Virus record (IMG/VR): IMGVR_UViG_3300023435_000009
Reading direction: 5' to 3' (one strand)
Length of the DNA: 64,000 nucleotides
Source: a virus
Lineage: Duplodnaviria > Caudoviricetes
Below are positions 21,617 to 62,046 of this stretch, one piece after another (the stretch's first letter is position 1; each line of letters starts with the position of its first letter). Both the position numbers and the translations under genes were made by a program. The notes under the pieces were generated by a model. That model made no database searches. It saw only the letters and a list, made by a program, of their open reading frames with translations, and was not told the DNA's origin.

Positions 21617-21644
21617 CTACTCTAACTAGAGGGCGGATGATCCC
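21617..21644 (-). promoter_or_regulatory. Bipartite motif GGGATCATC-N13-GAGTAG upstream of the PARP-like gene
   Basis: One of seven intact copies with exact 13-nt spacing. Confidence 0.7.
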
Positions 21645-22727: not shown

Positions 22728-25700
22728 ATGGATAAAGACAACGACGGTCTGGTAATGCTCATTCCCGGAGAGGAATCCCCCAAGGTCACCCCAAAGACCG
22801 AAGAACCCGTGACGGAGGACCCGGAGGCCATTGACGTCTTCAACTTTTTTGCGGACAACGACGAGTTGAACCCGCAGCGGCTCTGGAAACCCTGGATGGA
22901 CGAAAAGAAGTTCGTCCTCGGGACCGTGGACAACATCACTCAGATCATGGACGAGTGCATCGAATCAGGGCGGTATGCCCTTGATCTTGAGACCACGGGT
23001 TTGGACAATCGGCTCAAGAAGACGGCCAGCGGGCACTACTGCACCGTTGACCACATTGCTGGCGTTTGTCTGAGCGCCGATGGTGTCACAGGGTATTACA
23101 TTCCGATTCATCATGTGAAGGTGGGGGAGGACGGACTCAGGGAAGACCGAGCCTGCAACATCCCGATAGGCATCTTCGACCGGGAATTCCGGCGGCTCAT
23201 CAAAGCGACCGAGGATGGTCTCACCGTCGCAGACTTCCACAACGGTAAATTTGACCAGGAGTTCCTCCAGTTCAATGAGACAGGAATCCCCTGGGGTGAA
23301 TGGGACCGCCCCGCAATGTGGGACGACACCCTCATCGCCGCCTACATGCGGAACACCCGAGCCAGACGCCGGGGTCTTAAGGCATTGTCCGAAGCTCCCG
23401 TGGATTCTCCCCCGGAGAACACCGTGGGTGGTCCGGGTCTGGGCATGGAGATGATCGACCTCTACGAGTTGTGGGGGCACAAGAAGGAGCAGCGAGGTTT
23501 CAACTATGACTTCTCGGTCCTTGACCCGACCGAGGGGCCTGCCCTGTGGTACGGATGCAGCGACGCCATCTGCACCTGGCTGCTCGACCCGGTCCTGATG
23601 CCCTCTGCCAAGGAAAAGGACACGGATGGGATCAGCCAGGCGGCGATCTACAAGATCGAGAAGGTCTGCGTAGCAGCCACTCGTTGGATGGAGCGCAATC
23701 TCATCCACATCAACCGAGACAAGGTCCAAGAGTTGGTTTCGTTGGGCCAGCAGGAATGGTTCGACTCCATCGTAGAGGTCTACACGGAGGCGTCCAAGAT
23801 CTTGGGCCGGGACGTGATGCCTGATCTCTACAAGGAGGTCCAGCGGAACTTTGTGGCCAATGACCCTGACAACCTCCTGCGAACGCAGCTTGAGAAGGCG
23901 GACAGCCTCACGAAGCGCAATCCTGGCATGCCCCCCGTGTTGAAGGGGGAGGAGTCCTGGCCTGCAGTCTACGACGTGAACTCCCAGAAGCAGCTTGGGA
24001 CGATGTTCAATGAGATGGAGGTGCCGGGCCTCAAGTTCACGGAGAAGTCCGGTCAGGTCAAAACGTCCAAGGACGAGTTGAACAGGATCATTGAGGAAGC
24101 GGGCCAGAAGTTCCCGTTCATGGCGAAGATCAAACGCTTCCGGGAGGTGGCCAAGGCGCTGTCTACCTACCTGGAGTCGATGTTGCTGGCGAGTGACCCT
24201 GAAGATGACTCCATGCGGATCAACTTCAACGGGCACAAAGTGGATACGGGCCGCTTCAGCACCCCTGCGAAGGAGTCCGCAGGCGACAGGCGCAAAGGTC
24301 GGATGATCGGTTGGCCAGAGTTGAACGTCCAGTCAATGCCGAACCGTTACGATCCTGACCGCCCGGAGTGCATGAACAGATTGCGGGAATGTTTCGGTGT
24401 CAGGACTGTGCCCAAGGATGCACCACCCCGTTTCCTAGTGGCAATAGATTATGCTGGCGTGGAATTACGGTTGGCTACCAATATTTCGGGTGAGCCTAAA
24501 TGGTTGGCTGAGTTTTTCCATTGTTCTTCCTGTGACCGAACCTTCGAACGAACACCTCGCACAGGTGCTGACATAATAGCCACTATAACCCCCGTACCTC
24601 CTCCTGCACGGTGCCCGAACTGTGGTAGTGACAAGATAGGGGACTTGCACACCCTGACAGGACTCTCCATTTATGGGGCTGACGCTACGAGCAGGCCCGA
24701 TTGGAAGAACCTTCGTGGTCATTCGAAAGCAACCAACTTTGCATTGTCCTACGGTGGCGGAGGGAGCGCTGTGTGTCGGGCTACGGGAGTGGATCGGAAC
24801 GAGGGTCAGCGGATTAAGAACCAGTTCGACAACACCTACTACGGCCTGAAGCGGTGGTGGAACAGTCAGCATAAATACGCCAAAACATACGGTTACGTGC
24901 GGACAGCCTTCGGTCGGAAGTATCCTGTACCGGACATCTACAACGAAGACGGGGGTTTCCGGTCCAAGGCAGAGAGGAATAGTGTGAACGGACCCATTCA
25001 AGGTTGTATTCGATTTGATGAAAGGGTAGCTAGTAGTATAGGGTTGCTAGACATCCAGACGTTGTTCCAGAGGCAATTTCCAGGTCTTCTGTTTTGGACT
25101 GGTGTAAAATGGGTGGCTGGGCGTGTGCTGGCTTCAGGGGAAAAGCTCGATTGTTGTACGGAACTAAGCAATGGCAATACGTTACACACTAGTCCAGATC
25201 ATCAGTTTCGAGTACTGACGGAACAGGGGCTGGGGTGGGTGGCACAGAAAGAACTGTGTTCCGAAACTTGGGTAGTTACCAATGCAACATCTGTAACAAC
25301 GACGGATGTTCCCCATTACCAATGGGATAGAGCAAGAGATCCTCAACGAGGACACCTGTTTTCGAAAGGAATGACGTCGCACAATGCCAAACGTTTTCTG
25401 TTTGCTGGTAATTCCGCCGTACTATGGGAGTTTTTGGGTGCTATCTACGGGGACGGTTCAATCCAACAGAACGCCTTCATCTTGCACATTGGTGAGTCCA
25501 ACCTTTCAAAAATCCCAGCGGGGCAGCGGTCTTCAGAATGGATGCTGAAACTCAACACCCATTTGCAGGTGGAAGCAATAACAAGGAAGCAACGACGACG
25601 AGAAGACGACAACAGACAGGACATGTGGCAGGTTAAAGTACTGAACAAAGATTTCAGGACGTTTTGTCGTGACGTGCTCGGTGTGTTAGATCAAACAACA

Positions 25701-27083
25701 CACACAAAAAGATTTCCTGTTGCTTTGTGGAGCGAAACATCTGAAAACAGGGCGGCTTTTTTGCGAGGTTATTTTGATACTGACGGCACAGTGTCACCTC
25801 GAACCCCCAAAAAAGCGGATGCAGCGCCTGCTTTTCGTAGTGCCAATTTTGAACTTCTTTCAGACACCCAAAAATTACTCCATTCGTTAGGTATCCGGGC
25901 GTCCCTGCGACGACGGGGAATGTGGGTACGTGTGCTTGACAGAACACGTTTTCGGGATTTGGTCGGATCGTCTTTAGACTACAAACGGAAAAGGCTCGAC
26001 GATATGCGTGTGGGTTACTACCATAACCAGCGACATTGTCTTCCGCCTTTCCTGGTGAAAAAGATCGGGAGACTAGTCAAAACCTCTAGTGTTTACGCTC
26101 CTTTGCCTAGAGCTAAAAAGTCTGCGGTGCTAAGAATGGTCGCAGGAGCAGCAAGTAAAGAACAGTGTCTTGTTTATTTCAATCAACTTCCGATAGAGGA
26201 ACAACCGGAGGAGTTGCGGCGGTTGTTGCAGTATGACTATGAAAAAGCAGTTCTTACGGAACAGTCGGAACGAACCGTCCCAATGTACGATGTTGAGATC
26301 TTTGATGAAGACCATGCCTTCGTTTGCAACAATATCATCGTTCACAACAGTTCCGCTGACGTCACCAAAACTGCGATGGCTCTGATTTACAAGGAATGTA
26401 AGCGTCGGGGTTGGTTGGACAAGGTGGCCATGAACATCACTATGCATGATGAGCTTGTCTTTGAGGTAGATGCTGACGTGCTGGAAGAGGCTGTTCCTGT
26501 CCTGGTCGATTTAATGGTGGCCAACGATTACATTTTGGTCAAGAACTGGCCTGTACCGTTCACCACCGATGTCGAGATCGGTACTGACTGGACAGTTCCC
26601 TGGGACCTCAATGCGATGAGGTATGGGGAGGTGCGGTTCCACGAAGGCAAAAAGTATGGCAAAAAGAAGGATCTCCCGGAAGGTGTTGTTTGGGATGATC
26701 TCCCGTCTTGGCCTGAGGAGTTGGCCCCCTGGTTCAAGGAGGCCCAGGGCGCACCAGCCGCTGGGGTGTCTACGTCGCTTTCTGTGGCGTTCCCGAAGGG
26801 AGAGGCCCCCGAGGTGCCCAGTGTCGTCCCAGTGACGTCTCTCGCCCCCACAGCGGTTCCTGGGGAGGACTACTTCTTTCAGCTTCCTGGTCCGATGACG
26901 TACAAACTGGCGGGTCAGCTTGCAGAGATCATTGCCGAGTGTCACGGAAAAGGATCAAGTCCATTGCGCCTCAGGACAGTTGAGGGTATAGAGGTAGAAG
27001 GTTGGTTGGAGGGATTGAACCTCACGACGATCCGGGTGAGCCCTGTACAATTAGAAACCCTGATCCAGTACGTTTTCCGGTAG
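22728..27083 (+). CDS. polA: Family A DNA polymerase (3'-5' exo + pol) with intein
   Basis: ALDLETTG, FHNGKFD, TGRFST..LNVQS, motif A IDYAGVELR, motif B RGHSKATNFALSYG, NGPIQG|SSAD, motif C ITMHDELVFE. Confidence 0.93.
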   Translation: MDKDNDGLVMLIPGEESPKVTPKTEEPVTEDPEAIDVFNFFADNDELNPQRLWKPWMDEKKFVLGTVDNITQIMDECIESGRYALDLETTGLDNRLKKTASGHYCTVDHIAGVCLSADGVTGYYIPIHHVKVGEDGLREDRACNIPIGIFDREFRRLIKATEDGLTVADFHNGKFDQEFLQFNETGIPWGEWDRPAMWDDTLIAAYMRNTRARRRGLKALSEAPVDSPPENTVGGPGLGMEMIDLYELWGHKKEQRGFNYDFSVLDPTEGPALWYGCSDAICTWLLDPVLMPSAKEKDTDGISQAAIYKIEKVCVAATRWMERNLIHINRDKVQELVSLGQQEWFDSIVEVYTEASKILGRDVMPDLYKEVQRNFVANDPDNLLRTQLEKADSLTKRNPGMPPVLKGEESWPAVYDVNSQKQLGTMFNEMEVPGLKFTEKSGQVKTSKDELNRIIEEAGQKFPFMAKIKRFREVAKALSTYLESMLLASDPEDDSMRINFNGHKVDTGRFSTPAKESAGDRRKGRMIGWPELNVQSMPNRYDPDRPECMNRLRECFGVRTVPKDAPPRFLVAIDYAGVELRLATNISGEPKWLAEFFHCSSCDRTFERTPRTGADIIATITPVPPPARCPNCGSDKIGDLHTLTGLSIYGADATSRPDWKNLRGHSKATNFALSYGGGGSAVCRATGVDRNEGQRIKNQFDNTYYGLKRWWNSQHKYAKTYGYVRTAFGRKYPVPDIYNEDGGFRSKAERNSVNGPIQGCIRFDERVASSIGLLDIQTLFQRQFPGLLFWTGVKWVAGRVLASGEKLDCCTELSNGNTLHTSPDHQFRVLTEQGLGWVAQKELCSETWVVTNATSVTTTDVPHYQWDRARDPQRGHLFSKGMTSHNAKRFLFAGNSAVLWEFLGAIYGDGSIQQNAFILHIGESNLSKIPAGQRSSEWMLKLNTHLQVEAITRKQRRREDDNRQDMWQVKVLNKDFRTFCRDVLGVLDQTTHTKRFPVALWSETSENRAAFLRGYFDTDGTVSPRTPKKADAAPAFRSANFELLSDTQKLLHSLGIRASLRRRGMWVRVLDRTRFRDLVGSSLDYKRKRLDDMRVGYYHNQRHCLPPFLVKKIGRLVKTSSVYAPLPRAKKSAVLRMVAGAASKEQCLVYFNQLPIEEQPEELRRLLQYDYEKAVLTEQSERTVPMYDVEIFDEDHAFVCNNIIVHNSSADVTKTAMALIYKECKRRGWLDKVAMNITMHDELVFEVDADVLEEAVPVLVDLMVANDYILVKNWPVPFTTDVEIGTDWTVPWDLNAMRYGEVRFHEGKKYGKKKDLPEGVVWDDLPSWPEELAPWFKEAQGAPAAGVSTSLSVAFPKGEAPEVPSVVPVTSLAPTAVPGEDYFFQLPGPMTYKLAGQLAEIIAECHGKGSSPLRLRTVEGIEVEGWLEGLNLTTIRVSPVQLETLIQYVFR
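25005..26348 (+). mobile_element. Intein with LAGLIDADG endonuclease in PolA (448 aa)
   Basis: CIRFDE...IIVHN|S; GAIYGDG and RGYFDTDG. Confidence 0.92.
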
Positions 27084-43399: not shown

Positions 43400-43427
43400 G
43401 GGATCATCTCCCCGACCCGCAGAGTAG
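43400..43427 (+). promoter_or_regulatory. Bipartite motif GGGATCATC-N13-GAGTAG
   Basis: Exact spacing, upstream of 43463. Confidence 0.7.
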
Positions 43428-48390: not shown

Positions 48391-49812
48391 ATGAAGTGTC
48401 GCATCTTCCGACTTCACAAGGATACCAATCAGTCCAAGATCGATAAGTTGGAAGCCCTACACAAAGCATACGTCAAGTACGTCCGCATTTGCGTACAAAC
48501 GATGCTTGACCAGCAGGTCTATAATCTCCCGAAAGCCGCCAAACAAACGTTCTTCCCACGGGCCACCAACCTTACGTCCCAAATCGAAAAGATCGCACGA
48601 GACCACGCTATCCAAATTGTGAGCGCTTGGGCCAAAGCCACTTACGCCCGCAAGTTGAAACCGACTATCACCAACCTCAAGCACGAGGGTACCCTCACCG
48701 AACAGGACGCCAAAGCACTCTGTGTCATCGGATTAAAAGCCATCAGTAAGCCCTGGAAGTTTATCACCCAAGACCATCTCGACGCCTACCACACCCTGTT
48801 GGACACCTACGGAGGTAATAAGCCTATCGTAAGGGACAACCTGCCCATGCGGTTGTCGGAGATGACGGCTCGGTTGGAGGACGCATCTAAAGCCCCTCTC
48901 GGGGACTTCTGGTTGAGGGTGTCTTCGTTAGAAGCTCGTAAGTCCGTCTGGTTGCCTCTCGTTGGGAATCTTTACATTCAACAAGCTGATCAGGTCAGCA
49001 AAGGGATCTCAGCCCGCAAAACCAAGCGAGGCTTTTGGCGCTTTGAGGCGGTCAGTAAGGCTGAATGGGTTGTTCCCGAAGCACAGGAAGGTTGGCCTAA
49101 GTTGGGCGTTGACGTTGGTCTGAACGTCCTTGCAGCTACATCAGATGGAGTGATTTACGGTGAACACGTCAAACCTAAGTTCGACAAACTCTACGCTCGT
49201 GTCAGAAATCTTCGAGCAAATCGCCAACGGCAGGATTTGAAGGATAACAGCCCAAAGTTGGATCACCTTGAGAGCAAATTGAGTGGGTTGATCAAGACAG
49301 AGACGGGTCGTGTGGTAAACACCCTTATCGTTCGTCATCCCGAGACGGTGTTCGTGGTCGAAGATCTCGATCTTCGAGGTTGTAGGGGTCAAAAAAGGTT
49401 TGCTTACAGGGCGTTACAGATCAACTTGGAAAGGAAAGCTCCAACAAAGAAAGTGAACCCTGCTTACACGTCGCAGGAGTGTCCTTCTTGTGGTTATGTT
49501 CATCGAGGAAACCGAAGTTCAATAAGGTTCCGTTGCCGCTCGTGCGGCAGGAAAGCTCATGCTGATTGGGTAGGAAGCGCTGGTGTGCTCAGACGTTCTG
49601 GAGACGAACACATCAAAGCTAATGATCACCCACGAGGCGTAAAACGAGTGCTAAGAGAGCGATTCCGTATTAAGCGGACCAGTTCCTTGGGATTCGGACG
49701 GCAAGAGCAACCGTCATCCGAGCCCTTACCGTTGGGCCGGGAGCTTACTACCGAGGCACTTGGGTTACCAAGGATCGGCACAGCCTCAAACTTGATGCCT
49801 GTTACATTCTAG
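48391..49812 (+). CDS. tnpB: TnpB RNA-guided nuclease (IS200/IS605 family, no TnpA)
   Basis: LGVDVG, VVEDL, NPAYTSQECPSCG..CRSCG, HADW. Upstream hairpin CTGCTT-N8-AAGCAG at 48361-48380. Confidence 0.9.
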   Translation: MKCRIFRLHKDTNQSKIDKLEALHKAYVKYVRICVQTMLDQQVYNLPKAAKQTFFPRATNLTSQIEKIARDHAIQIVSAWAKATYARKLKPTITNLKHEGTLTEQDAKALCVIGLKAISKPWKFITQDHLDAYHTLLDTYGGNKPIVRDNLPMRLSEMTARLEDASKAPLGDFWLRVSSLEARKSVWLPLVGNLYIQQADQVSKGISARKTKRGFWRFEAVSKAEWVVPEAQEGWPKLGVDVGLNVLAATSDGVIYGEHVKPKFDKLYARVRNLRANRQRQDLKDNSPKLDHLESKLSGLIKTETGRVVNTLIVRHPETVFVVEDLDLRGCRGQKRFAYRALQINLERKAPTKKVNPAYTSQECPSCGYVHRGNRSSIRFRCRSCGRKAHADWVGSAGVLRRSGDEHIKANDHPRGVKRVLRERFRIKRTSSLGFGRQEQPSSEPLPLGRELTTEALGLPRIGTASNLMPVTF

Positions 49813-49817
49813 CAGGT

Positions 49818-50023
49818 TTTAAGGAATGGTACCGTAGTGACCTCCCGAAGGGGGGGCCAGCGATGTCGGAGAGTACAAATACGACGAGATGGTGGGCGAA
49901 GAAATCAGTCGCTTCCGTAAGAAGCTGGACCCATTGTTGAAGTCCTACCGGAAGCACATCAAAGAGGTCCAGTTCGGGGGCGAAGAAAAGTCCTGGATTC
50001 ACGCCTACATCGAACTCAAATAG
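49818..50023 (+). pseudogene. Orphan coding tail downstream of tnpB with a frameshift in a G7 run
   Basis: FKEWYRSDLPKG, then in another frame ASDVGEYKYDEMVG..SWIHAYIELK-stop. Confidence 0.35.
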
Positions 50024-50099
50024 CCTCTCCTCGGTAGAACGCCTATCTGACATCCCACAGCATTGACTCCCACAGCGAAAGTGGGCAAAGGAGAAAGAC

Positions 50100-50447
50100 A
50101 TGAAAAGGATTCTGATTGCACTGTTGACACTGATCTTGGCGGCAGCATTCGTCTTGTCCTGTAACACCACGGAAGAGAATGCCGAGGACGTGACTGTTGC
50201 CGAGGACACCCTGGCAGACCTCATCGAGGGCGACGTGCCCCTGACGGACGGAACCGTCGAGACTGTCGCAGCCCTGGACACCGTCCCCACCGAAGACACC
50301 CTTCTGGAAGAGATGCCCACCCCGGTGGACGTGATCCAGGACGAGCACACCCCAATGGACGCCGTTGGGGATGCGCCTCCGATGTACGACAACCTGGAGG
50401 AAACGCACACCCCGGTGGACGTACTCCCCGAGGTCGCATCCAACTAG
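50100..50447 (+). CDS. Acidic putative lipoprotein with HTPxD repeats
   Basis: Signal peptide ending VLSC; PTPVDV/HTPMDA/HTPVDV. Confidence 0.7.
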   Translation: MKRILIALLTLILAAAFVLSCNTTEENAEDVTVAEDTLADLIEGDVPLTDGTVETVAALDTVPTEDTLLEEMPTPVDVIQDEHTPMDAVGDAPPMYDNLEETHTPVDVLPEVASN

Positions 50448-51128
50448 CCCACCAGTTTGTCCAACTCACCCCTCAGATACTTCACGGCTGAGATACGTTT
50501 CCCCAGTCGATGATCTGTGACCTGATCCCTCTGGAGAGCGATAGTTCGTACCTTGTCGGACATCATGCCTCTCCCCACCTGAGCTTTCCGTTGCTGGTTA
50601 CGTTGGTCCAACTGAGAGGATGCCTCTGCCTCCTGTAATCGGGCAGACAGGATTGCCTTCGCCGTTTGTAAATTCCGGTACTGTGATCGTTCGTTCTCTA
50701 CTCGGACAACCAGACCCGTGGGTTTGTGTGTGAGGATTACTGCAGACGAGGTTTTATTCCGATGTTGGCCTCCAGGACCTGAGCCACGGGTCGCCTGCCA
50801 CTCCAGGTCTCGCTCGTTCAGTTTGACGGTCTGCTCGTCCACGAGAGAGAGTATAGCGATAGTAACTGTTGACGTGTGTGTCCTGCCCCGTTTCTCCGTG
50901 GGGGGTACCCGCTGCCATCTCATACCACCGGCTTCATGCCGAAAAGCCCTTACAGCCCCCTTCCCGACCGCCTGGAAGGCAAGGAAACCGGGACGGTCCT
51001 CCAGCAACACCACGTCAAAGGGACCTCCTCTGTGCCCATCGCACATAAACACCGTACTGTTCATGAACCAATAAGGAGGCATCCCGACCTCCCTCACCTG
51101 CTCTTATTTCTATTATGACAGTTTCCAT
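50444..51128 (-). CDS. Peptide chain release factor-like protein (no domain 1, PxT + GGQ) made by +1 programmed frameshift, 227 aa
   Basis: Frame 0 (51128-51015): METVIIEIRAGEGGRDASLL..RRSL-TGA. The +1 frame continues DVVLLEDRPG..QRVPPTEKRGRTHTS..GPGGQHRNK..RSQ. Confidence 0.88.
51014..51029 (-). promoter_or_regulatory. prfB-type +1 frameshift cassette AGGAGG-TCC-CTT-TGA-C
   Basis: Internal SD, 3-nt spacer and CUU-UGA-C, as in bacterial RF2 genes. Confidence 0.88.
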
Positions 51129-52243
51129 TAGTTTGACTCCTTCTCTAGCCCTAGTCGTCGGCAGGCCCACCCAGCCCATGCCGGGGTCATTTGAAAATGT
51201 TCCGCAATGCGTTTTTGTGTCCAGCCTTGCCCCCTCAGTTGACGGAGTTCCTTTTCGACTTGATCAATTTTTGCGGGAGCTTTACCCCTCACCTGAAGCT
51301 TGTATCGGAAGCAATCAGGACAAAAAGGTTCCGTTAGGGCCACCAGTTCCAGTCGGTGTTTTCGTTGGCTTAGGACCAGTCTAGGATTCCCTCTGTGGCT
51401 CTGCACACGAGGAGACCAACCATAAAGTAGCCGCAGTCTAGAGGCTAGAAACTCGACATCCTCCCAGGTGAAACCGTCCGTGCAAAAGGCTACCCCATAC
51501 CCTGTATTAATCAGCCCACCATCACCCCAGTACCAATGCGCTAACGCTCGGGGGGTTAGCCGGATGTCCAGAGGAATAATTTTTTTACCCTTTGGGTACC
51601 AACGGAGGCGCTGGTCCGTAAATGTTTTGTATTTCAGTGTCCTTAACTGTAAACTCGGGTTACCTCGGAGAACCTGTTTCCCAATGTGACCGATTCTTGC
51701 CGGACGTGGTTTTATGTTGCTTTTAACACCCCCGGCCCTAAGTTCCCTTTGAACCTGTTCAAGCCATTCCTTTCGGTCTGCTCTTTGTGCTAGTCCCAGA
51801 CGACCCTCACTGCCACCTGTTTTTTCCAACCAGGCGTCACCAAGAAGTAAACCATCGATTAATTCAAGGGACTCCTCTGTGGTAGGGAAGGTCTTGTGAC
51901 AAATCAGAGTATGTGCCTCCTGTACCCCCCGTAGAGGAACACCAGCCCGCTCTAAACGGATACGCACCCAGTTGCGACTGAAACCCGTTGCCTTCGCTAA
52001 CTCAGAGACAGAACGTCCTGACAGATACTCAGCGGGAAGGCTTTCCGTTGTTTTTGCATCTCGTTTGCCTTGAGCGATTGTTGCAGCCTCACTGTGGGTG
52101 CGGAAAGAAACATCTGCTTTAGCCAACCGTCGATGAATCACAGGTGCTGAAACACCTAGTGCCTTAGCAATGTGCAACTCCAGTTCCCCCGCTTGGTACC
52201 GACGAACAATGTCTGCGTCATCCAACGTGAGTCTTTTGGGCAT
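51128..52243 (-). CDS. Free-standing LAGLIDADG homing endonuclease with HTH segments
   Basis: LIDGLLLGDAW and LAHWYWGDGG. Likely start MPKRLT after GAGGAGG; TAATG overlap with the release factor gene. Confidence 0.85.
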   Translation of the reverse strand: MPKRLTLDDADIVRRYQAGELELHIAKALGVSAPVIHRRLAKADVSFRTHSEAATIAQGKRDAKTTESLPAEYLSGRSVSELAKATGFSRNWVRIRLERAGVPLRGVQEAHTLICHKTFPTTEESLELIDGLLLGDAWLEKTGGSEGRLGLAQRADRKEWLEQVQRELRAGGVKSNIKPRPARIGHIGKQVLRGNPSLQLRTLKYKTFTDQRLRWYPKGKKIIPLDIRLTPRALAHWYWGDGGLINTGYGVAFCTDGFTWEDVEFLASRLRLLYGWSPRVQSHRGNPRLVLSQRKHRLELVALTEPFCPDCFRYKLQVRGKAPAKIDQVEKELRQLRGQGWTQKRIAEHFQMTPAWAGWACRRLGLEKESN

Positions 52244-52299
52244 AACGTCCTCCTCTGACAGCCCCACTCTACACGACGATCTCTGACCGGCAAGGACTT

Positions 52300-52608
52300 T
52301 CACACCCACTTGTTCCGGGGGACAAAGATCAGGGTGACGCTGTCGTCCTCCCAATCCACACCCTGGCATCGTGCCCATGTCCTAAACTCTCGTGTTTCTC
52401 GTCGCCACCGATAGATCCGGTCACGGCACCCGATGTCACAGATGCCCCGGCTCATACGAGGACGACCGAAAGTGCGCTTGCGGCAGTGGCAGGCTAACGA
52501 TGGGGTCTTGGCGTACCGATGTGGCTCCACATCCTCGGGAGCGCTGTAGATTTCAAGACGTGAACGGATGACATTTGCTGTCCTCTGGCGGCGGGTTCCA
52601 CGGTCCAT
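52300..52608 (-). CDS. Hypothetical basic Cys-containing protein
   Basis: GGAGGAGG RBS; CHC..GRP..C. Confidence 0.55.
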   Translation of the reverse strand: MDRGTRRQRTANVIRSRLEIYSAPEDVEPHRYAKTPSLACHCRKRTFGRPRMSRGICDIGCRDRIYRWRRETREFRTWARCQGVDWEDDSVTLIFVPRNKWV

Positions 52609-52701: not shown

Positions 52702-52926
52702 TCAGGCTTGTCCAGTCGTTTTCGACTTAGGACAGGTCCATCGGCCATGGGCGTCCTTGGTCAGGGTCTTCGCTCTGCGGGCGTTGAACAGGACCGCTCC
52801 CGTGGAGCGCTTGTTGGTGTAGCCCACGCTGGCGCACAGGGACACGACCTGCTTCCCGAGGATCGGTCCGTGGTGTGCAACGATACGCTGAACGAGTTCG
52901 AGTGGTGTTTTGTGTTCCATTTTCAC
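52702..52926 (-). CDS. Small hypothetical protein (wHTH-like)
   Basis: GTGA-coupled to the upstream HA gene. Confidence 0.45.
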   Translation of the reverse strand: MKMEHKTPLELVQRIVAHHGPILGKQVVSLCASVGYTNKRSTGAVLFNARRAKTLTKDAHGRWTCPKSKTTGQA

Positions 52927-53258
52927 TCCTTGGTGTCCCAGGTGAATCCGAGAGCGTTCAACTGGGCGATCCTTTCCGGGGTCATCCTGACCTTGTGCTG
53001 CCCCTCCTGGACCGTTCCGACACGGCTTCCCAGCTTGTAGCCGTCCGGGCTGACGTAGTTGTGGGGCACGGCACAGTGGCCGTGCGCCCGCTTGAACGCC
53101 GTCAGGTGGGAAAGGAAGTTGGGGAGCCAGGGCTTCTCGGATGTCCTGTTCGTCCTCCCAAGGCGTTGCACCACACAGTGACCGTGTGCCTTTCGGTAGG
53201 CCGTCAGGCGACTCAGGAACTCGGGGAACCAGGGCGTCTCAGGTGTCTTGTTCTTCAT
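52923..53258 (-). CDS. HA (helicase-associated) domain protein, 1 truncated + 1 full repeat
   Basis: WLPNFL..L..FKRAHGHCAVP..Y..DGYKLG..LNALGFTWD. Confidence 0.85.
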   Translation of the reverse strand: MKNKTPETPWFPEFLSRLTAYRKAHGHCVVQRLGRTNRTSEKPWLPNFLSHLTAFKRAHGHCAVPHNYVSPDGYKLGSRVGTVQEGQHKVRMTPERIAQLNALGFTWDTKE

Positions 53259-53281
53259 GTTCGTCCTCCTTGTACTGGAGA

Positions 53282-53309
53282 CTACTCAGGGGTGGGCTTG
53301 GATGATCCC
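53282..53309 (-). promoter_or_regulatory. Bipartite motif GGGATCATC-N13-GAGTAG overlapping a gene end
   Basis: Exact spacing; the TAG of the motif is the stop codon. Confidence 0.7.
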
Positions 53310-54001
53310 CTGAGACTCCAGACAAAACCCAGAGCGTCCAGTTCGGTGACCATTTCGGGAGTCACCTTGACCTGACCCCCACCATTACGGGATGAACGAA
53401 TACTGTTTGTTCGAACACCGAGTTGGTAGCCATCGGGGCATTTGTAGGATTGCGCCGGAGAATAGTCCCCGAATTTGGCATGGTACTCCTTCAGCCTCTT
53501 CAGGAATTGGGGAAACCACTCGTTCCCATTCCAGACGAACCCAAGAAGGTCCAGCGCCGCTATCATCTCTGAGGTAGGGCTTACACGTTTCTTGTCCTTT
53601 TTTCTTGTCCGGACATCAGATACCCTCATCCCAAGGGCGTAACCATCGGGACATTTGTAGGACTTTGGGACACGGCAGTGCCCGTGGGTCTTTTTGTACT
53701 CCTTCATGTGGGACAGGAATTCAGGGAACCATTCGCACACAACCCAAACGAACTTCAGGGCATCAAGTTCAGCGATCATTTCGGGAAGGTGTCTGGACTT
53801 GTTATGCCGGACACTACTTACACGGGCACCCAACCTGTACCCGTCGTCACACAGGTAGGACTGCGGCACTCGGCAATGTCCATGACATTTCTGATAGGCT
53901 TTGATTTCCCCCAGGAACACATCGAACCACGCTGGCCAAGGTTTTATCCGCCCAAGCTCAGTGAGGCGTTTACGGAATTTGTTGCTGTTACTCCTGCCCA
54001 C
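53282..54001 (-). CDS. HA domain protein, 3 repeats
   Basis: Repeated WF..FL..Y...HGHC.VP..Y.C.DGY.LG..L..LGFVW. Confidence 0.88.
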   Translation of the reverse strand: MGRSNSNKFRKRLTELGRIKPWPAWFDVFLGEIKAYQKCHGHCRVPQSYLCDDGYRLGARVSSVRHNKSRHLPEMIAELDALKFVWVVCEWFPEFLSHMKEYKKTHGHCRVPKSYKCPDGYALGMRVSDVRTRKKDKKRVSPTSEMIAALDLLGFVWNGNEWFPQFLKRLKEYHAKFGDYSPAQSYKCPDGYQLGVRTNSIRSSRNGGGQVKVTPEMVTELDALGFVWSLRGSSKPTPE

Positions 54002-54011
54002 GGACGACCTC

Positions 54012-54665
54012 CTACCAGCCGTAGGAAAGGCGGAGGAGTTGCATCGGAATGACTCGGCTGCGGTACGTAGTGAACGCTTGCTTCGGCACCTGGACGCCGC
54101 AGTGTTTGTGGACGATGGCCTCGAACTGCCGCTTCGCCTTTTCCAAGGGAGCGCTGGCGTTGCCCCGGAGGGCTAGGTTGATGACCAGGAGGAATTGTCC
54201 CAGGCGCTGCTGTTGGGACTGGGCAAAGGCGAACATCGGAAGGAGGATGCTCTCCAGGTGGAGGTTGCTGGGACTGCGAAACCCGTCGAACACGAGGACG
54301 CCGATGTTGCGGAGGGTCGGGTCGTCCAGGTCCAGGAGGAGCCGGGACATGTCGCCGCAACGCCACTCGGTGCGGTCGTCGTTGTAGTGGGTGGCGTTGC
54401 GGTCAAGGATCCCCTGGTTGGTGTTGACGCCGATGTATCGGCCATGGTCGGGGGCAAGGACGCCTTCGTCCAGGAGGAGGCCACAGGTAGCGTCAGGGGC
54501 ATCACCGCACAACTCCATCCAGTCCCTGGTCAGGTGCCCGTCGTAGAAGAGGTTCGTGGGGCACTCTGGGTCACGGAGGAGGTCGAGGGTCGTGGTCCTG
54601 GTCTTGTGCTTCTCCGGGTGTTGTTCAGGGGGGAAGGAATGGATGTCAGCCTGCGGGGTGGTCAT
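54012..54665 (-). CDS. Class I SAM-methyltransferase-like fold protein (divergent)
   Basis: WMELCGD, YIGVNTN, WRCGDM and VLVFDG occur in Rossmann motif order. Confidence 0.45.
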   Translation of the reverse strand: MTTPQADIHSFPPEQHPEKHKTRTTTLDLLRDPECPTNLFYDGHLTRDWMELCGDAPDATCGLLLDEGVLAPDHGRYIGVNTNQGILDRNATHYNDDRTEWRCGDMSRLLLDLDDPTLRNIGVLVFDGFRSPSNLHLESILLPMFAFAQSQQQRLGQFLLVINLALRGNASAPLEKAKRQFEAIVHKHCGVQVPKQAFTTYRSRVIPMQLLRLSYGW

Positions 54666-55547
54666 GGGGTGTTGTCCTTCTTCTGATTGCGGAGATCCCA
54701 AACGAAACCGAGGACATCAATCTGGTTGATCTGAGTGGGTGTCAGTTTACGGCCATCCGCCGGGGCAGACGTATTTTTGGGGGGGTGTCTGTCCCCCGTG
54801 TGCGTCCATGTACTCTCTGAGGTGACAAAGGAACTCCGGCCACCACTGCCCTTTCGTGGTGGCGTCCCAGACAAAGCCGAGAGCACCGAGTTGGCTCCGC
54901 ATAGTGGGGGTCAAGACCCGGTGATTTCGTACCCCCGCTGTGTGATGGCCTAGTTTGTAGCCATCATCGCATACATAGGTGCCACGCACCTGACAACGGC
55001 CATGCACGGCCTTGTACGCCTTCAAATGTTCCAGGAACTCCGGGAACCACTCTGTCGGGACATCCCACAGGAAACCTAGTTGCTCAAGTTTCTCCGCCCT
55101 GCTCGGGGTGATTTGGACGCCCACTTTGTGCCTTTTGCCTGTCCGAACAGCATTCACTTTTGGGCCAAGTCTATACCCGTCCTGACATCTGTACTGGGTG
55201 GGCACCTGACAATGGCCGTACTCGGCTTTATAGTCCTTCAGACGCCGGAGGAACTCGTCGAACCAACAGGGGATCTCCCAAAGGAAACCGAGTTGATCCA
55301 GTACAGGCACCATTGAGGGAGTCACTGTCCGAACACTTTTCCCTTGTCGAAACCTGCGAATGTCCCCGACCCTGTTCCCCAATGTGTACCCGTCAGTACA
55401 CTTGTAAAGCTGCGGCACCTTACAGTCCCCGTGTTCTTCCTTGTACGCCTTCAGATGTGCCAGGAACACATCGAACCACGCTGGCCAAGGTTTCATCAGC
55501 CCAAGCTTGGCGAGACGTTCACGGAATTTGTTGTTCCTTTTGCCCAC
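54662..55547 (-). CDS. HA domain protein, 4 repeats, last repeat frameshifted near 54762-54765
   Basis: ORF 54747-55547 stops at YVCPGGWP. Another frame continues PADGRKLTPTQINQIDVLGFVWD to an ATGA overlap at 54662. Confidence 0.75.
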
Positions 55548-55566
55548 GGACGACCTCCTACCAAGA

Positions 55567-55594
55567 CTACTCTGTAGGTGGCCGAGATGATCCC
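55567..55594 (-). promoter_or_regulatory. Bipartite motif GGGATCATC-N13-GAGTAG overlapping a gene end
   Basis: Exact spacing; the TAG is the stop codon. Confidence 0.7.
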
Positions 55595-56571
55595 GTTATT
55601 CGAACATCCCACATAAAGTCGAGGGCAGCTAGATCAGCAACCATGGGCAGGGTGATTTTCCTCCGACCTGTTGCGTCCCTACGGCCCTCTCTAACGCTGT
55701 TCGTCATGGCCCCTAACTTGTACCCATCCCGACAGCAATATCCCCTGGGCACCATGCTGTCGCCGTGCTCCCGGTAGAACTTCGTCAGGTGACTGAGGTA
55801 CTTGGGGAACCATTTGCCCGTCAGGTTCCGGTCCCGCTCGAACCCGAGGGCATCCAGTTTTAAGACCATCTCTGGGGTGACCTGGAGGGGCATCGACTCA
55901 TCGCTGCCCTCCTCCAACCGGCGGATGCTCGTTCGGATGCGTTGGACCCTCAGGCCTAACTTGTGTCCATCCGCACATTCAAATTTGACAGGGATCGAAC
56001 AGTTCCCATGTTCCGCCTTGTATTCACGCAAACGCTGCACAAAGTCGGGGAACCATTCCGAGGGTTCCCATTCAAATCCAAGTGCGTCCAGGTCAGCAAT
56101 TATCTCATCCGTGAGTTGCCGGAACGCCTTCTTATTCAGTGCCCTTGCCCGTTTCGCTGCCCGAACAGCGGCGGCAGTTTTACCCAGGGTGTATCCATCG
56201 GGGCACTCATAAGGAACGGGTGGGTTTTGGCCGTCGTGAGCGGTCATATATTCCACCAGACGAACCCGGAACTTTTGGAACCAGCGATCTTTTGGAGCCA
56301 GCCAGTCAAAACCGATGGCATCGAGGGCAGTACTCATCTCCTCCGTCAACACACGGTTTGATGGGCGCTTCCTTGCGGAACGGATTCGCCCCACCTTGTT
56401 CCCTAAGCGGTACCCGTCTTCACACTTGTAGTTGTGGGGCACTTCACAATCCCCGTGCTCCGCCTTGTACGTCTGAAGGTGGGAGTGGAACTCATCGAAC
56501 CACGCTGGCCAAGGTTTCATCCGCCCAAGCTCAACGAGCCGCAGTCTGAATTTGTTGCTCCTCCTACGCAC
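55567..56571 (-). CDS. HA domain protein, 4 repeats
   Basis: Four HA units; leader SNKFRLRLVELG. Confidence 0.88.
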   Translation of the reverse strand: MRRRSNKFRLRLVELGRMKPWPAWFDEFHSHLQTYKAEHGDCEVPHNYKCEDGYRLGNKVGRIRSARKRPSNRVLTEEMSTALDAIGFDWLAPKDRWFQKFRVRLVEYMTAHDGQNPPVPYECPDGYTLGKTAAAVRAAKRARALNKKAFRQLTDEIIADLDALGFEWEPSEWFPDFVQRLREYKAEHGNCSIPVKFECADGHKLGLRVQRIRTSIRRLEEGSDESMPLQVTPEMVLKLDALGFERDRNLTGKWFPKYLSHLTKFYREHGDSMVPRGYCCRDGYKLGAMTNSVREGRRDATGRRKITLPMVADLAALDFMWDVRITGSSRPPTE

Positions 56572-57490
56572 GGATGACCTCCCACACGAAACCGATGGCG
56601 TCGAGTTCCTTGATCATCTCGGGAGTCACTTTGATCCTGCCTATGCCTCTCTTAGCTTGTCGGACACCCTTTACCCGTGTCCCGAGCTTGTACCCGTCCT
56701 CGGGACACTTGTAGGATGTGGGCACCTGATAGTCCCCGTGCTCCTTTTTGTATTCCTTCAGCCTCACCAGGAACTCAGGGAACCACTCCTTCGGATCCCA
56801 CACGAACCCGATGGCATCGAGTTCCTTGGTCATCTCGTCGGTCAGGATGACCGTCCCTTTGCCTCTCTTAGCTGACCGAACACCCCTTACCCGTTCCCCC
56901 AGATGGTATCCGTCCTCGGGCCACTTGTAGGACGTCGGCACCTGACAGTGGCCATGCTCCCTTTTGTATTCCCTCAGCCTCACCAGGAACTCAGGGAACC
57001 ACTCCCTCGGATCCCACACGATCCCAATGGCGTCGAGTTCCTTGATCATTTCGGGGGCTATTTTGAGTCTCCCTTTGTCTCTCTTAGCTTGTCGGACATT
57101 ATCTACTCTGCCCCCGAGCTTGTACCCGTCCTCGGGACACTTGTAGGATTTAGGCACCTGACAGTGCCCACGCTCCTTTTTGTATTCCTTCAGTTTCTCC
57201 AGGAACTCAGGGAACCACTCCCTCGGATCCCATACGAAACCGATGGCGTCGAGTTCCTTGGTCATCTCGTCGGTCAGTGTGACGTTCCCTTTGCCTCTCT
57301 TAGCTGACCGAACAACCATTACCCGTTCCCCCAGATGGTACCCGTCCTCGGGACACTTGTAGGATTTAGGCACCTGACAGTGCCCACGCTCCTTTTTGTA
57401 TTCCTTCAGTTTCTCCAGGAAGAGGTCAAACCAAGCTGGCCAGGAAGGCACATAACCCAACACACTGAGGCGTTGCCGGAACTTGTTCAT
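56564..57490 (-). CDS. HA domain protein, 4 near-identical 72-aa repeats
   Basis: Leader MNKFRQRL; four HA units. Confidence 0.9.
   Translation of the reverse strand: MNKFRQRLSVLGYVPSWPAWFDLFLEKLKEYKKERGHCQVPKSYKCPEDGYHLGERVMVVRSAKRGKGNVTLTDEMTKELDAIGFVWDPREWFPEFLEKLKEYKKERGHCQVPKSYKCPEDGYKLGGRVDNVRQAKRDKGRLKIAPEMIKELDAIGIVWDPREWFPEFLVRLREYKREHGHCQVPTSYKWPEDGYHLGERVRGVRSAKRGKGTVILTDEMTKELDAIGFVWDPKEWFPEFLVRLKEYKKEHGDYQVPTSYKCPEDGYKLGTRVKGVRQAKRGIGRIKVTPEMIKELDAIGFVWEVIRA
56575..57430 (-). repeat. Tandem 216-bp coding repeat, 4 units
   Basis: Homologous CAGGAA anchor (AGG at 56769, 56985, 57201, 57417) recurs at a period of 216. Confidence 0.9.
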
Positions 57491-58194
57491 CTCGGAACCA
57501 CCCAGAGGAAACCGAGGGCATCAAGTTTGGCGATCATCTCGGGGATCACTTGGAGGAAACCTTTGCCTCGTCTCCCGCATCGAACATGGCTCGCCTTTTC
57601 TCCCAACTTGTACCCATCGGGGCACACGTAGTCCTTCGGGATGTGGCCCACGGGGTACTTTTCCAGCACCGCTTTGATGTGGGCGTAGAACTCTGGCCAC
57701 CATTTGCCAGTGTTGCAGGCGTCCCAGACAAACCCTATAGCGTCAAGCTGCTCGACCATCTCGGAGGTGACCTTGAGACTACCTATGCCCCTCCTTCCGG
57801 AACGGATCACTTGTACTCGTTTCCCCAGCTTGTATCCGTCATGGTGGACATGCGTGCCAGGGGGGGCGCAGTGACCGTGTTCCGCCTTGTACTCAATCAG
57901 ACGGCGAAGGACACCTTTGAACCACCCGTTCCCGTTCCACGGGAAGCCAATGTCATCGAGCATCCGAATCATCTCGGACGTAAGCTTATGACCAGTTCCT
58001 CGGCGGTAGCTAGTTCGGATGGAGTTGGTTTTCGACCCTAGCTTGTACCCATCTTCGCAGGCATACGTCTGAGGGGGTGTCCTCCCGTCATTTTCCTCCA
58101 TGTACCGTGTCATACGGGCCACGTAGTCCAGGAACCATTCGGATACGGGTTCCACCAGCCCCATTTCGGCCAGTCTTTTGCGGAACTTGTTCAT
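57487..58194 (-). CDS. HA domain protein, 3 repeats
   Basis: Leader MNKFRKRLAEMG; ATGA-coupled to the helicase. Confidence 0.88.
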   Translation of the reverse strand: MNKFRKRLAEMGLVEPVSEWFLDYVARMTRYMEENDGRTPPQTYACEDGYKLGSKTNSIRTSYRRGTGHKLTSEMIRMLDDIGFPWNGNGWFKGVLRRLIEYKAEHGHCAPPGTHVHHDGYKLGKRVQVIRSGRRGIGSLKVTSEMVEQLDAIGFVWDACNTGKWWPEFYAHIKAVLEKYPVGHIPKDYVCPDGYKLGEKASHVRCGRRGKGFLQVIPEMIAKLDALGFLWVVPR

Positions 58195-60170
58195 GGCATC
58201 TGCCCGTAGACCTGCTTCCAGTTGATTGTGATCGGGGGGAGCTTGAAGTGAGGGGAAGCGTCGGTGTTATCAATAGGGGGTTCAACTTTGTGCTCCTCAA
58301 AGTAGGACATCAAGGCGTCATCTATCTGAGCCAAGGTGAACTGTGGCGGAGGTATCGCAGCTTTCAGACGTTCAGCGACCTGCTTCGCTGTCCTGCCCTC
58401 GAAACGGGACAGGAAGTCAACGACCCTGTCCGCCTGACCAATGTCCGCCGTCGCCCCTTCGAACTCTTGGATCACTGCGTCGAAGACCGGCCTCAACTCC
58501 TCTCGGATGATGCGGTAGTCAGACAAATCCCCGCCCTGGGCCTTCCTCCACAGGGTCTTGTGAAAGTAGGAGAAGGCTCGGGTTTGTTTTTTGAGGATGC
58601 TGTACGCCAGTGCTCGTTCAGCCTGTTCCATCTGCTCCTTGGACAACCGCATCGCTGTCCTCAGGTAGTGGGCCACCTCTTTGTTGGTCGGTTTCTTGAC
58701 CCCACTCTCACGGAGAAGGATAACGGCCTTGACCATGAGACCCATGGCCTCCCGGCACTGTTGAACATCAGCCCCGATGAACTGGGTGACATCCTCCCAG
58801 GTTTCCTCCGCCGGGCGATGCTTTTTGCCCTGACGCTTGTGCCCGATGTCCTCCAAACGTCGCTGGATGTCCCCCAGGATGTAGTCCTGGCCGACACTAA
58901 AATCCGCCATGAAGCACGCCGTCAGGAAGGCATGATCCTGGTGCTGCTGTTCGAACTGGGCAAACAAGTTCTCGGTCACACAGGGTACCAGGAAGGTGAA
59001 GGTGGCCGTGTTCTTGTGCTCCTCGGGGTAGCCATCGATGGCTCCCTTGAAGCGCAACGCCCGCCCCAGGCGTTGAAGGATGCGGACGAAGGAACTGGTC
59101 AGGCCGATGTTGTAGACATGGCTGCACAGGGGCCAGTCGGTTCCCTCATTGAACCGGGCACAGGCAAGGATCACGTCTACGGTGGAGTCCTCGTAGGCTC
59201 GGACCCGACGTTCCTTTCGGAGGAGGTGCTTGAGGGCGTCGGTGGCTCGTTGCCCCCCCTTGATGGCGTTGTGTACCCTCGCTCCCTGCCTGGTGAACTC
59301 GTCCTCCAGCCGTTTAGACCACGCATCGGCACTGTTAGCGGGGACGATGATGACAGCCTTGGGGCGCTTGTCCTTGACCCACAAGTCCACGATGTCGATA
59401 CAGGTTTGGAGTGGGGCAGTACTGGTCATGGACTCGCCAGCAAGCTGATTCGTCGTGTTCGCCTTTATGCCCAGAGGATGTGTGCGGAAAGAAAGCTGCC
59501 CCGGTGCGTACTGGCCTCCCTCCATGTGGGATGCCAGCGTGCGGTCCCAGCGGGGGGCGTTGTCATCAATAAGGGTATCACCGTCCGTGCGGAAGGGCGT
59601 GGCAGTCACGTGAATGACTGTGCCCCCTCGGGTCTGCCACTCCTTGACGAAGGTACCCACACCGTTCTCGGGGGCTGTGTGGTGTGCCTCGTCCACGATC
59701 AGGAGACGCCCGGTCATGTCCTTGGGGAGAAGGTCAGGGGCAAACCAGACTGCCGCCGCCATATGTGTCGTGACCAGCACCCGGTTAACCGGGCGGACAC
59801 TTCTGACGTGATCTTTGAGGTACTCCCGGCGCTTACCATCCCGAACTTGGAACCACTGAAGGGCCGCTACCGTGAGTGGCCCCCCAACAGACACTCTTCC
59901 CTGGGGTACTTCCTCGCTGGGGCGGATCTTCAGGTCTCCCTCATAGATGAAGGCATCCGAAATCTGACACTGTGGGGCGAGAACAACGGCTAACCGAAAC
60001 ATCTCCGTGTTGAGCAACCGTTCGGCCAGATAGGTCACCATGAGGGATTTGCCGCTTCCGGTGGGACCACTCAGCACTACCTCTCGTCTCCCGTTGGTGA
60101 CGTGCCGGAACAAGTGCCGGAAACAGTCCTGCTGATAGGGGCGCAAGGTACGAGTTTCAGGGGTTTTCAT
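58191..60170 (-). CDS. SF2 DExH helicase (type III restriction Res-like)
   Basis: YQQDC, GPTGSGKS, IVDEAHH, TATPFRTD, FNEGTDWP, QRLGRALR. Confidence 0.9.
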   Translation of the reverse strand: MKTPETRTLRPYQQDCFRHLFRHVTNGRREVVLSGPTGSGKSLMVTYLAERLLNTEMFRLAVVLAPQCQISDAFIYEGDLKIRPSEEVPQGRVSVGGPLTVAALQWFQVRDGKRREYLKDHVRSVRPVNRVLVTTHMAAAVWFAPDLLPKDMTGRLLIVDEAHHTAPENGVGTFVKEWQTRGGTVIHVTATPFRTDGDTLIDDNAPRWDRTLASHMEGGQYAPGQLSFRTHPLGIKANTTNQLAGESMTSTAPLQTCIDIVDLWVKDKRPKAVIIVPANSADAWSKRLEDEFTRQGARVHNAIKGGQRATDALKHLLRKERRVRAYEDSTVDVILACARFNEGTDWPLCSHVYNIGLTSSFVRILQRLGRALRFKGAIDGYPEEHKNTATFTFLVPCVTENLFAQFEQQHQDHAFLTACFMADFSVGQDYILGDIQRRLEDIGHKRQGKKHRPAEETWEDVTQFIGADVQQCREAMGLMVKAVILLRESGVKKPTNKEVAHYLRTAMRLSKEQMEQAERALAYSILKKQTRAFSYFHKTLWRKAQGGDLSDYRIIREELRPVFDAVIQEFEGATADIGQADRVVDFLSRFEGRTAKQVAERLKAAIPPPQFTLAQIDDALMSYFEEHKVEPPIDNTDASPHFKLPPITINWKQVYGQMP

Positions 60171-60489
60171 TTGCTGTCACCTCCGTCCTCAACGGGACGT
60201 CTTCGGGTTTTCGTAATCTCCACTGGTAGGAGGGGGACATGTATCTTGAGGGGGTGATCCATCCGACACGCAGATCCCCTGTGCGGCTCATCATGTTTTC
60301 CTGCACCCAAAAACCGACATAGCGTTTGAACCTGTTCCTGTTGTCAGCGTGGCGGAACACGAAGTCGAAGGCGTCCTCTATGGTCTCGGCCTCGATACGC
60401 CCCTCATAGAGGTGGTGTGACTGCGTGGGAGACCGAAACCCAAAAGCGTACCACATCTTCAGTTCTTTGGTGTCGTCCTTTTCCGCCAT
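60157..60489 (-). CDS. Hypothetical protein
   Basis: AGGAGG RBS; first gene after the motif at 60511. Confidence 0.6.
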   Translation of the reverse strand: MAEKDDTKELKMWYAFGFRSPTQSHHLYEGRIEAETIEDAFDFVFRHADNRNRFKRYVGFWVQENMMSRTGDLRVGWITPSRYMSPSYQWRLRKPEDVPLRTEVTANENP

Positions 60490-60510: not shown

Positions 60511-60538
60511 CTACTCAGTGGGCCTCTCAGATGATCCC
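60511..60538 (-). promoter_or_regulatory. Bipartite motif GGGATCATC-N13-GAGTAG heading the helicase/HA operon
   Basis: Exact spacing. Confidence 0.7.
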
Positions 60539-62018: not shown

Positions 62019-62046
62019 CTACTCTGTAGGTCGGTCAGATGATCCC
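62019..62046 (-). promoter_or_regulatory. Bipartite motif GGGATCATC-N13-GAGTAG upstream of the macrodomain gene
   Basis: Exact spacing. Confidence 0.7.

Follow-up and report, generated by a model that had tools for sequence, protein, structure and literature searches.

A huge-phage locus combining an SF2 helicase, a methyltransferase-fold protein and stand-alone HA-repeat proteins

The window analyzed here is a stretch of 64,000 nucleotides from a virus of the Caudoviricetes (Duplodnaviria; IMG/VR record IMGVR_UViG_3300023435_000009). It is part of a 125.7-kb virus record; the same phage (hereafter the window phage) is also represented by a 528-kb contig and recurs in 24 sequencing runs, all of which are salt-lake DNA metagenomes. 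The locus in question is a tightly packed row of genes on the minus strand, in the order 110-aa open reading frame (ORF), superfamily 2 (SF2) helicase, HA1, HA2, HA3, HA4, X, HA5, and HA6 (Table 1), where HA1 to HA6 are built of helicase-associated (HA) repeats and X is a protein of methyltransferase fold. A first-pass annotation, made from the sequence alone, had read the row as one motor with separate HA subunits. That reading is reasonable, but we find the locus better described as a phage-specific core of motor plus methyltransferase-fold protein, to which HA repeats are an optional DNA-binding part, either fused or separate.

Gene content of the locus

The helicase contains two RecA-like domains with motifs Q, I, II, III, and VI, identified by Pfam, motif columns, and fold, which places it in SF2; its invariant motifs are Q13, GxGK (residues 38–41), DExH (160–163), TAT (189–191), and QxxGRxxR (366–373). 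Neither Pfam nor a custom HA hidden Markov model (HMM) detected an HA repeat in it, and 4-nt ATGA overlaps join helicase to HA1 and HA1 to HA2 (the HA2–HA3 overlap is 8 nt), so that the first-pass description of an HA-less DExH helicase coupled to HA genes was borne out. Pfam found no nuclease domain in the conserved parts (helicase, X, and HA proteins), with helicase motif Q lying already at residue 13, and the 110-aa ORF matched no family in Pfam and PHROG searches. Given that no nuclease domain was found, the suggestion that the system is restriction-like is unsupported. The 110-aa ORF was itself considered as a member of the module and rejected, its homologues being absent from related loci and found only in identical copies of this phage.

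The AlphaFold2 (AF2) model of the helicase (predicted local distance difference test, pLDDT, 80) matched XPB/Ssl2, Chd1/ISWI, EcoR124I HsdR, LlaBIII, and RadD, and also YeeB, EcoKI HsdR, Irc3, and RapA, so that on the predicted fold its best neighbors appear to be double-stranded DNA (dsDNA) translocases. In a PDB sequence search it returned only marginal matches to RIG-I-like RNA helicases (E ∼1e-3). Among Swiss-Prot folds, Bacillus subtilis YeeB matched the whole helicase best (template-modeling score 0.51/0.55, at only 14% identity); it is an uncharacterized putative helicase which we take to be encoded beside the putative methylase YeeA. The C-terminal 100–260 residues of the helicase were also considered as an HNH_repeat-like unit; this was discarded, with no Pfam support either here or in the related locus L001, and weak summed HNH_repeat matches were obtained in only two relatives, L019 and P0008.

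All six HA-only genes exceeded the Pfam HA (PF03457) gathering score of 28.4 bits, with 73–178 bits and E-values from 2e-20 to 3e-53, and Pfam reported HA and essentially no other domain in them, confirming the six HA-only genes that the first-pass annotation had proposed to check with this profile. Its count of about 20 repeats was also accurate, the total being 18 full units of ∼71 aa each plus two truncated ones (HA4 unit 4 and HA6 unit 1). Across the 125.7-kb record the HA HMM gave 18 matches, all inside the locus; 16 pass the cut-off singly, one more does so only with its in-frame neighbors, and one falls below it (25.3 bits). The HA proteins are basic, with isoelectric points (pI) of 9.3–10.1, and a PDB sequence search with one of them gave no match. 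A nuclear magnetic resonance structure of an HA domain (BVU_0683) does exist, for which the title of the report gives DNA binding (Mills, 2013, as cited in PMC12191111).

The four units of HA2 share 66–80% protein identity with one another and all other HA units 26–61%, and it appears that only the HA2 units are recent copies and the others are old. The earlier idea that repeats had been multiplied thus holds, as far as recent copying is concerned, for HA2 and fails for the remaining units. In a contig of the same phage from a different sample (L007:5392-6102) HA2 has three 216-nt units (236 aa) in place of the four in the window, the remaining 8 kb being near-identical; this could be real copy-number variation or a collapse of the repeats during assembly, and the three- vs. 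four-unit difference is seen in L007 alone, with contigs aligned to the locus ending within the HA2 repeats. HA4 repeat 4 has suffered an internal out-of-frame deletion, with ∼20 codons lost. The HA4 sequence is identical in three more contigs of the phage (L006–L008) and in contigs of four further runs, and because the broken gene recurs in those runs, an assembly error confined to a single sample is not the cause.

The start codon of X is the ATG at position 54665 and not the TTG at 54701; the resulting 217-aa form is recorded on at least 19 contigs. Its model has the seven-stranded class I methyltransferase topology with the expected strand order, and all of the PDB matches listed (the best 50 of 500 from Foldseek and the best 50 from VIA) are enzymes of the S-adenosylmethionine (SAM)-methyltransferase type, as are nearly all named matches in the AlphaFold DB. 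The MTase-like gene of the first-pass annotation is therefore, by predicted fold, of the class I type. The VIA matches listed lie between Z 11.7 and 13.4, and since the list is this flat no methyltransferase subclass can be assigned. Sequence families were less informative: X matched no Pfam or PHROG family, Pfam detected Methyltransf_25 in one of 13 relatives (E 0.012), and an X profile found nothing significant in the PDB (YecO only, E 0.78). A profile search recovered 159 cluster representatives. Among 60 diverse X representatives a lysine (K31), an arginine (R35), an aspartate closing strand 4 (D139), and a tyrosine (Y213; numbering of the 229-aa frame) are invariant, and the consensus has an acidic residue closing strand 2, a pattern that argues for an enzyme and not a scaffold. 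X is thus probably an enzyme, and to judge from its model it belongs to an unclassified methyltransferase-fold family that travels with a phage-only helicase. In one pair of near-identical relatives, the X homologue is a single 248-aa ORF in L004 (9928-10674) and is split into ORFs of 142 and 120 aa in L005 (9928-10673), which may be a frameshift variant or a sequencing error.

A 27-nt motif, GGATCATC-N13-GAGTAG, has six exact matches in the window, where 0.01 would be expected, and looks like a phage-specific promoter. One copy precedes a Macro-domain gene, and three fall in or beside the locus (Table 1), two of which are followed by the same leader/ribosome-binding-site (RBS) sequence, TGGTAGGAGG. 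If the motif is a promoter, the row would comprise three transcription units, and translation of promoter sequence would account for the unusual C-termini of HA3 and HA5.

Table 1. Features of the helicase–HA locus and copies of the promoter-like motif, in window positions
Feature	Position	Strand	Description
110-aa ORF	60157..60489	-	14-nt overlap with helicase start; local add-on
SF2 ATPase/helicase, 659 aa	58191..60170	-	Pfam ResIII, DEAD, Helicase_C
HA1, 235 aa	57487..58194	-	Leader + 3 HA repeats; Pfam HA E 3.8e-24; pI 9.4; ATGA-coupled to helicase
HA2, 308 aa	56564..57490	-	Leader + 4 tandem 72-aa (216-nt) repeats; Pfam HA E 2.8e-53
HA3, 334 aa	55567..56571	-	Leader + 4 HA repeats; Pfam HA E 5.4e-39
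HA4, 266 aa	54747..55547	-	Leader + 3 HA repeats + truncated fourth; Pfam HA E 4.2e-36
Orphan tail of HA4 repeat 4, out of frame	54662..54754	-	Sequence reading; ends in TGA overlapping the X ATG (ATGA)
X, 217 aa	54012..54665	-	Class I SAM-methyltransferase fold; AF2 pLDDT 90.5
HA5, 239 aa	53282..54001	-	Leader + 3 HA repeats; Pfam HA E 1.1e-32
HA6, 111 aa	52923..53258	-	No leader; one truncated + one full HA repeat; Pfam HA E 2.4e-20; pI 10.1
Promoter-like motif	60511..60537	-	Upstream of 110-aa ORF and helicase; then leader/RBS
Promoter-like motif	55567..55593	-	Last 9 codons of HA3, just before HA4; same leader/RBS after
Promoter-like motif	53282..53308	-	Last codons of HA5, just before HA6
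Promoter-like motif	21617..21643	-	
Promoter-like motif	43401..43427	+	
Promoter-like motif	62019..62045	-	

Relatives, fusions and the N-terminal leader

Viral contigs were scanned for further members of the helicase family with an alignment-based query, a single-protein query having found nothing. Nearly all homologues (to ∼30% identity) lie on large contigs of viral or metagenomic origin, and a scan of 185,579 species genomes added only two contigs of metagenome-assembled genomes, against the many large viral contigs; huge-phage contigs account for almost the entire family. An X homologue lies immediately 3′ of the helicase in L001–L004, L009–L014, L019–L021, and L024, and most helicase–X loci carry no HA repeat at all. 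The conserved core is therefore helicase plus X, with HA an optional add-on of one clade: the six HA-bearing helicases form a single clade with support of 100/99.

Within that clade the arrangement of the parts varies. Helicase–HA adjacency is kept in four lineages, namely the window phage, L001 (three HA genes with 12 repeats after the helicase), L030 (one HA gene after it), and the contig of P0004 (three HA genes upstream of it), which answers in the affirmative the synteny check that the first-pass annotation had called for. In P0005 (loci L002 and L009) the helicase C-terminus is instead fused to five HA repeats, with X next, and fusions recur in two more distant proteins, P0068 (helicase–X) and P0130 (helicase–HA–X). 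These fusions, together with a synteny that is conserved but rearranged, are strong evidence for joint action of the three parts, and helicase, X, and HA very probably work together. In the helicase tree the window phage branches first and the fused P0005 falls within the split forms, so that the direction implied by repeats "split off" from the helicase, an element of the earlier proposal, finds no support; within the HA clade, one secondary fusion would be at least as parsimonious as repeated (two) fissions.

The HA proteins share an N-terminal leader, N-x-F/L-R/G-x-R/K-L-x-x-M/L-G, usually with E before M/L-G, found on five of the six here, on all three in L001, and on the single one in L030. 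In the alignment of eight proteins from the window phage and L001, whose helicases are only ∼45% identical, Asn2, Leu8, and Gly12 are invariant; L030 has Lys at the Asn position. Such a shared leader fits docking adaptors. We also considered the leader as a copy of the pre-HA helicase helix of the fused forms and rejected this (best leader-HMM score 0.0 bits, vs. a shuffled maximum of 5.3). Separately, the related helicase P0011 has a long C-terminal extension with three I-E-M-G-L-R-x-P-P repeats at residues ∼658, 792, and 860, a motif resembling the HA-leader core L-x-E-M-G-L-x-E-P, and the HA leader may have derived from such a family-specific repeat.

Docking was modeled in a three-chain co-fold of helicase, X, and residues 1–93 of HA1, the HA1 fragment being the scored partner. 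Interaction prediction scores from aligned errors (ipSAE) were 0.55, 0.47, and 0.49 (median 0.49), whereas three controls all scored 0.00, including one in which the helicase was swapped and X retained; the runs shared at least 89% of contacts, with a partner pLDDT of at least 79. Among solved complexes, 58 of 80 passed the mark used, as did 2 of 110 mismatches, and passes at or below 0.60 are false more often than true when the pairing was not already probable. Since the fusions provide a good prior, we take the co-fold as a modest addition, and of the co-folding proposed by the first-pass annotation it can be said that the outcome was positive, but only weakly so. Its view of helicase and HA as one functional unit is thus supported by synteny, fusions, and leader, with the co-fold adding weakly.

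Some members of the helicase family lie next to CRISPR-Cas genes. In L003 (8001-14885) the helicase, X, and a 215-aa ORF are followed by Cas5d–Csd1–Cas7 and a short repeat array, and in L028 (2732-9468) and L029 a helicase–HA–X fusion comes immediately after the genes for Cas5d, a large subunit, and Cas7; no Cas3 was found within the flanks of these three loci. The window phage differs, in that its helicase does not adjoin a Cascade lacking Cas3, as it does in L003 and L028. Its Cas3, Cas5d, Csd1, Cas7, and type I-C array are ∼16 kb from the helicase (G000:C1:36508-43527, equivalent to L031:2509-9527, outside the window); the array has a 36-nt repeat ending in ATTGAAAC, and a TnpB-like gene lies just upstream of the set. 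No type I-C Cas7 was present in ten other helicase-bearing viral records, two of which are 95–100% complete. The helicase–CRISPR association is real in a subset and is not a general role. A type I-C variant with "a helicase protein instead of Cas3" is described for two huge phages by Al-Shayeb et al. (2020, PMC7162821).

Proposed action and alternatives

We give an even chance to a three-part huge-phage module in which an SF2 motor and X, its constant partner, are targeted by DNA-binding HA proteins. The basis of this proposal is observed: gene anatomy, folds, conserved synteny, fusions, the leader, and restriction to phages. As its motor the module would use an SF2 ATPase that lacks a nuclease and resembles dsDNA translocases (XPB, HsdR, or Snf2), with X as the likely catalytic output. 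HA proteins would bind DNA and dock onto the helicase through their N-terminal unit, thereby tethering or targeting the motor–X core, which would travel along DNA and modify its substrate there, presumably by methyl transfer. A DNA base may be the substrate, with RNA or a protein bound to DNA as less likely targets, and differing HA subunits might confer differing DNA preferences and so a division of labor. As to the role of the module, our leading guess is that the phage uses it to protect itself or to control its own very large genome.

Several observations weigh against this proposal. The X loop reads ELCGD, with a single glycine, and not the canonical GxGxG; the ribose-binding Asp that most of the family carries after strand 2 is replaced by Asn93; and many fold neighbors of X are RNA or protein methyltransferases. 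X also has no (D/N)PPY-type motif and matches no Pfam methyltransferase model, so that both methyl transfer and a DNA target are presumptive. The co-fold support for HA1 docking is weak and defines no interface. Two internal promoter-like motifs divide the HA array into separate units. With HA4 truncated and HA6 fragmentary, some of the six may not be functional adaptors, and elsewhere some stand-alone HA proteins have no neighboring helicase, so HA proteins can work alone.

This last point leads to an alternative in which the HA proteins are independent phage DNA binders, for example nucleoid organizers or transcription factors serving a genome of 528 kb, that lie beside the helicase through ancestry or co-regulation while helicase and X work alone. 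HA-free loci being the majority of helicase–X loci would sit easily with such independence, as would the free variation of repeat and gene numbers among relatives, the promoter-like motifs ahead of HA4 and HA6, which suggest separate transcription, and the stand-alone HA-only proteins, which are widespread and can lie far from helicases. The helicase–HA and helicase–HA–X fusions speak against it; HA genes also stay beside the helicase in four lineages despite changes of order, ATGA coupling joins helicase to HA1 and HA1 to HA2, and the co-fold signal, though weak, depends on the helicase. On balance we consider independence of the HA proteins rather unlikely. It is very unlikely, in our estimate, that helicase and X instead serve as an accessory or effector of phage type I-C CRISPR-Cas, recruited by Cascade beside or in place of Cas3, with HA as an alternative means of recruitment to DNA. 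The Cas3-free Cascade neighbors in L003, L028, and L029 speak for this, as do the type I-C genes and array of the window phage itself and the published variant in which a helicase stands in for Cas3 (Al-Shayeb et al., 2020, PMC7162821), although that helicase may or may not be of the family described here. Yet the Cascade of the window phage is 16 kb away and has its own Cas3, complete with a Cas3 C-terminal domain, and the ten other helicase-bearing records mentioned above lack a type I-C Cas7.

A module acting on RNA, combining an RNA helicase, an RNA methyltransferase, and RNA-binding HA proteins for, e.g., modification of phage transcripts or host RNA, seems to us similarly improbable. Many of the top folds for X are transfer, ribosomal, or small nuclear RNA methyltransferases (Trm14, TrmN, TrmK, METTL16, RlmJ, METTL5, and RsmD-like), the sole PDB sequence matches of the helicase are the RIG-I-like RNA helicases noted above, and the Pfam entry calls HA only possibly nucleic-acid binding. 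The X matches are, however, flat over all methyltransferase classes, and the top folds of the helicase are dsDNA translocases (XPB, Chd1/ISWI, HsdR, and a type ISP enzyme). HA elsewhere accompanies DNA enzymes, being present also on TniQ target selectors and PLD nucleases, and the solved HA domain is reported, in the title quoted in PMC12191111, to bind DNA (Mills, 2013). A broader form of the DNA-directed module, in which helicase and X form a general nuclease-free motor-plus-modifier effector aimed either by interchangeable HA subunits that share a docking leader (window phage, L001, and L030) or by an RNA-guided, Cas3-less type I-C Cascade (L003 and L028), strikes us as distinctly unlikely.

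The three-part module can be set beside several known systems. SF2 helicases with C-terminal HA (PF03457) share its domain family and its link to SF2, and the relative P0005 has their classical fused layout; here, in contrast, HA repeats are missing from the helicase and distributed among six genes, five of them with a shared leader, and the helicase family is phage-restricted and in most relatives paired with a methyltransferase-fold protein. Type I restriction-modification systems (HsdR/HsdM/HsdS) show the same division of labor in one operon, with an HsdR-like motor, a methyltransferase-fold subunit, and separate DNA-recognition subunits. The motor here, however, has no nuclease domain and the HA repeats are unrelated to HsdS, while X is not an HsdM-type N6-adenine methylase because it lacks both an NPPF/Y motif and a Pfam N6_Mtase match. 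In Pfam, X and the HA proteins matched no HsdM or HsdS family and the helicase no nuclease family, and the likeness is a resemblance of design and not membership. The type ISP enzymes LlaGI and LlaBIII, the latter among the fold matches of the helicase, likewise unite an SF2 translocase with a DNA-reading module, but the window locus has no Mrr/PD-(D/E)xK nuclease, keeps its parts on separate chains, and is encoded by a phage and not in a defense island. The layout of the type I-C variants with a helicase in place of Cas3 is shared by L003 (helicase 36% identical) and by L028, whereas in the window phage the helicase is not beside Cascade and Cas3 is present; the published helicase may belong to this family, and the portion of PMC7162821 available to us does not mention X or HA repeats with the variant.

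The locus offers what amounts to a natural dissection, with motor, enzyme-like partner, and DNA-binding repeats as separate small proteins for which the fused relatives can act as controls, and with the shared leader as a testable docking signal. HA repeats are, to our knowledge, among the commonest unexplained appendages of bacterial helicases, and how they work with the motor is not understood. The helicase–X pair is also linked to the unexplained type I-C variants of huge phages in which a helicase replaces Cas3. If the pair does modify or remodel DNA without cutting it, it would represent a new means by which phages protect themselves, take over the host, or control genes, and an effector aimed by HA proteins or by Cascade, should that prove true, could allow programmable epigenetic marking or remodeling in place of cutting.

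Neighboring genes and insertions

Downstream of the HA array (window positions 48391–52378) lie a free-standing LAGLIDADG endonuclease with helix-turn-helix domains, an RF-1-domain (release-factor-like) gene, and a TnpB-like gene, all of which are probably mobile insertions. In relatives, the corresponding position after X is occupied by an HU-like gene. Intein plus LAGLIDADG insertions are also present in three plus-strand genes of the window, encoding an SNF2-type helicase (2238–6419), a DnaB-like helicase (7333–11490), and a family A DNA polymerase (22728–27083).

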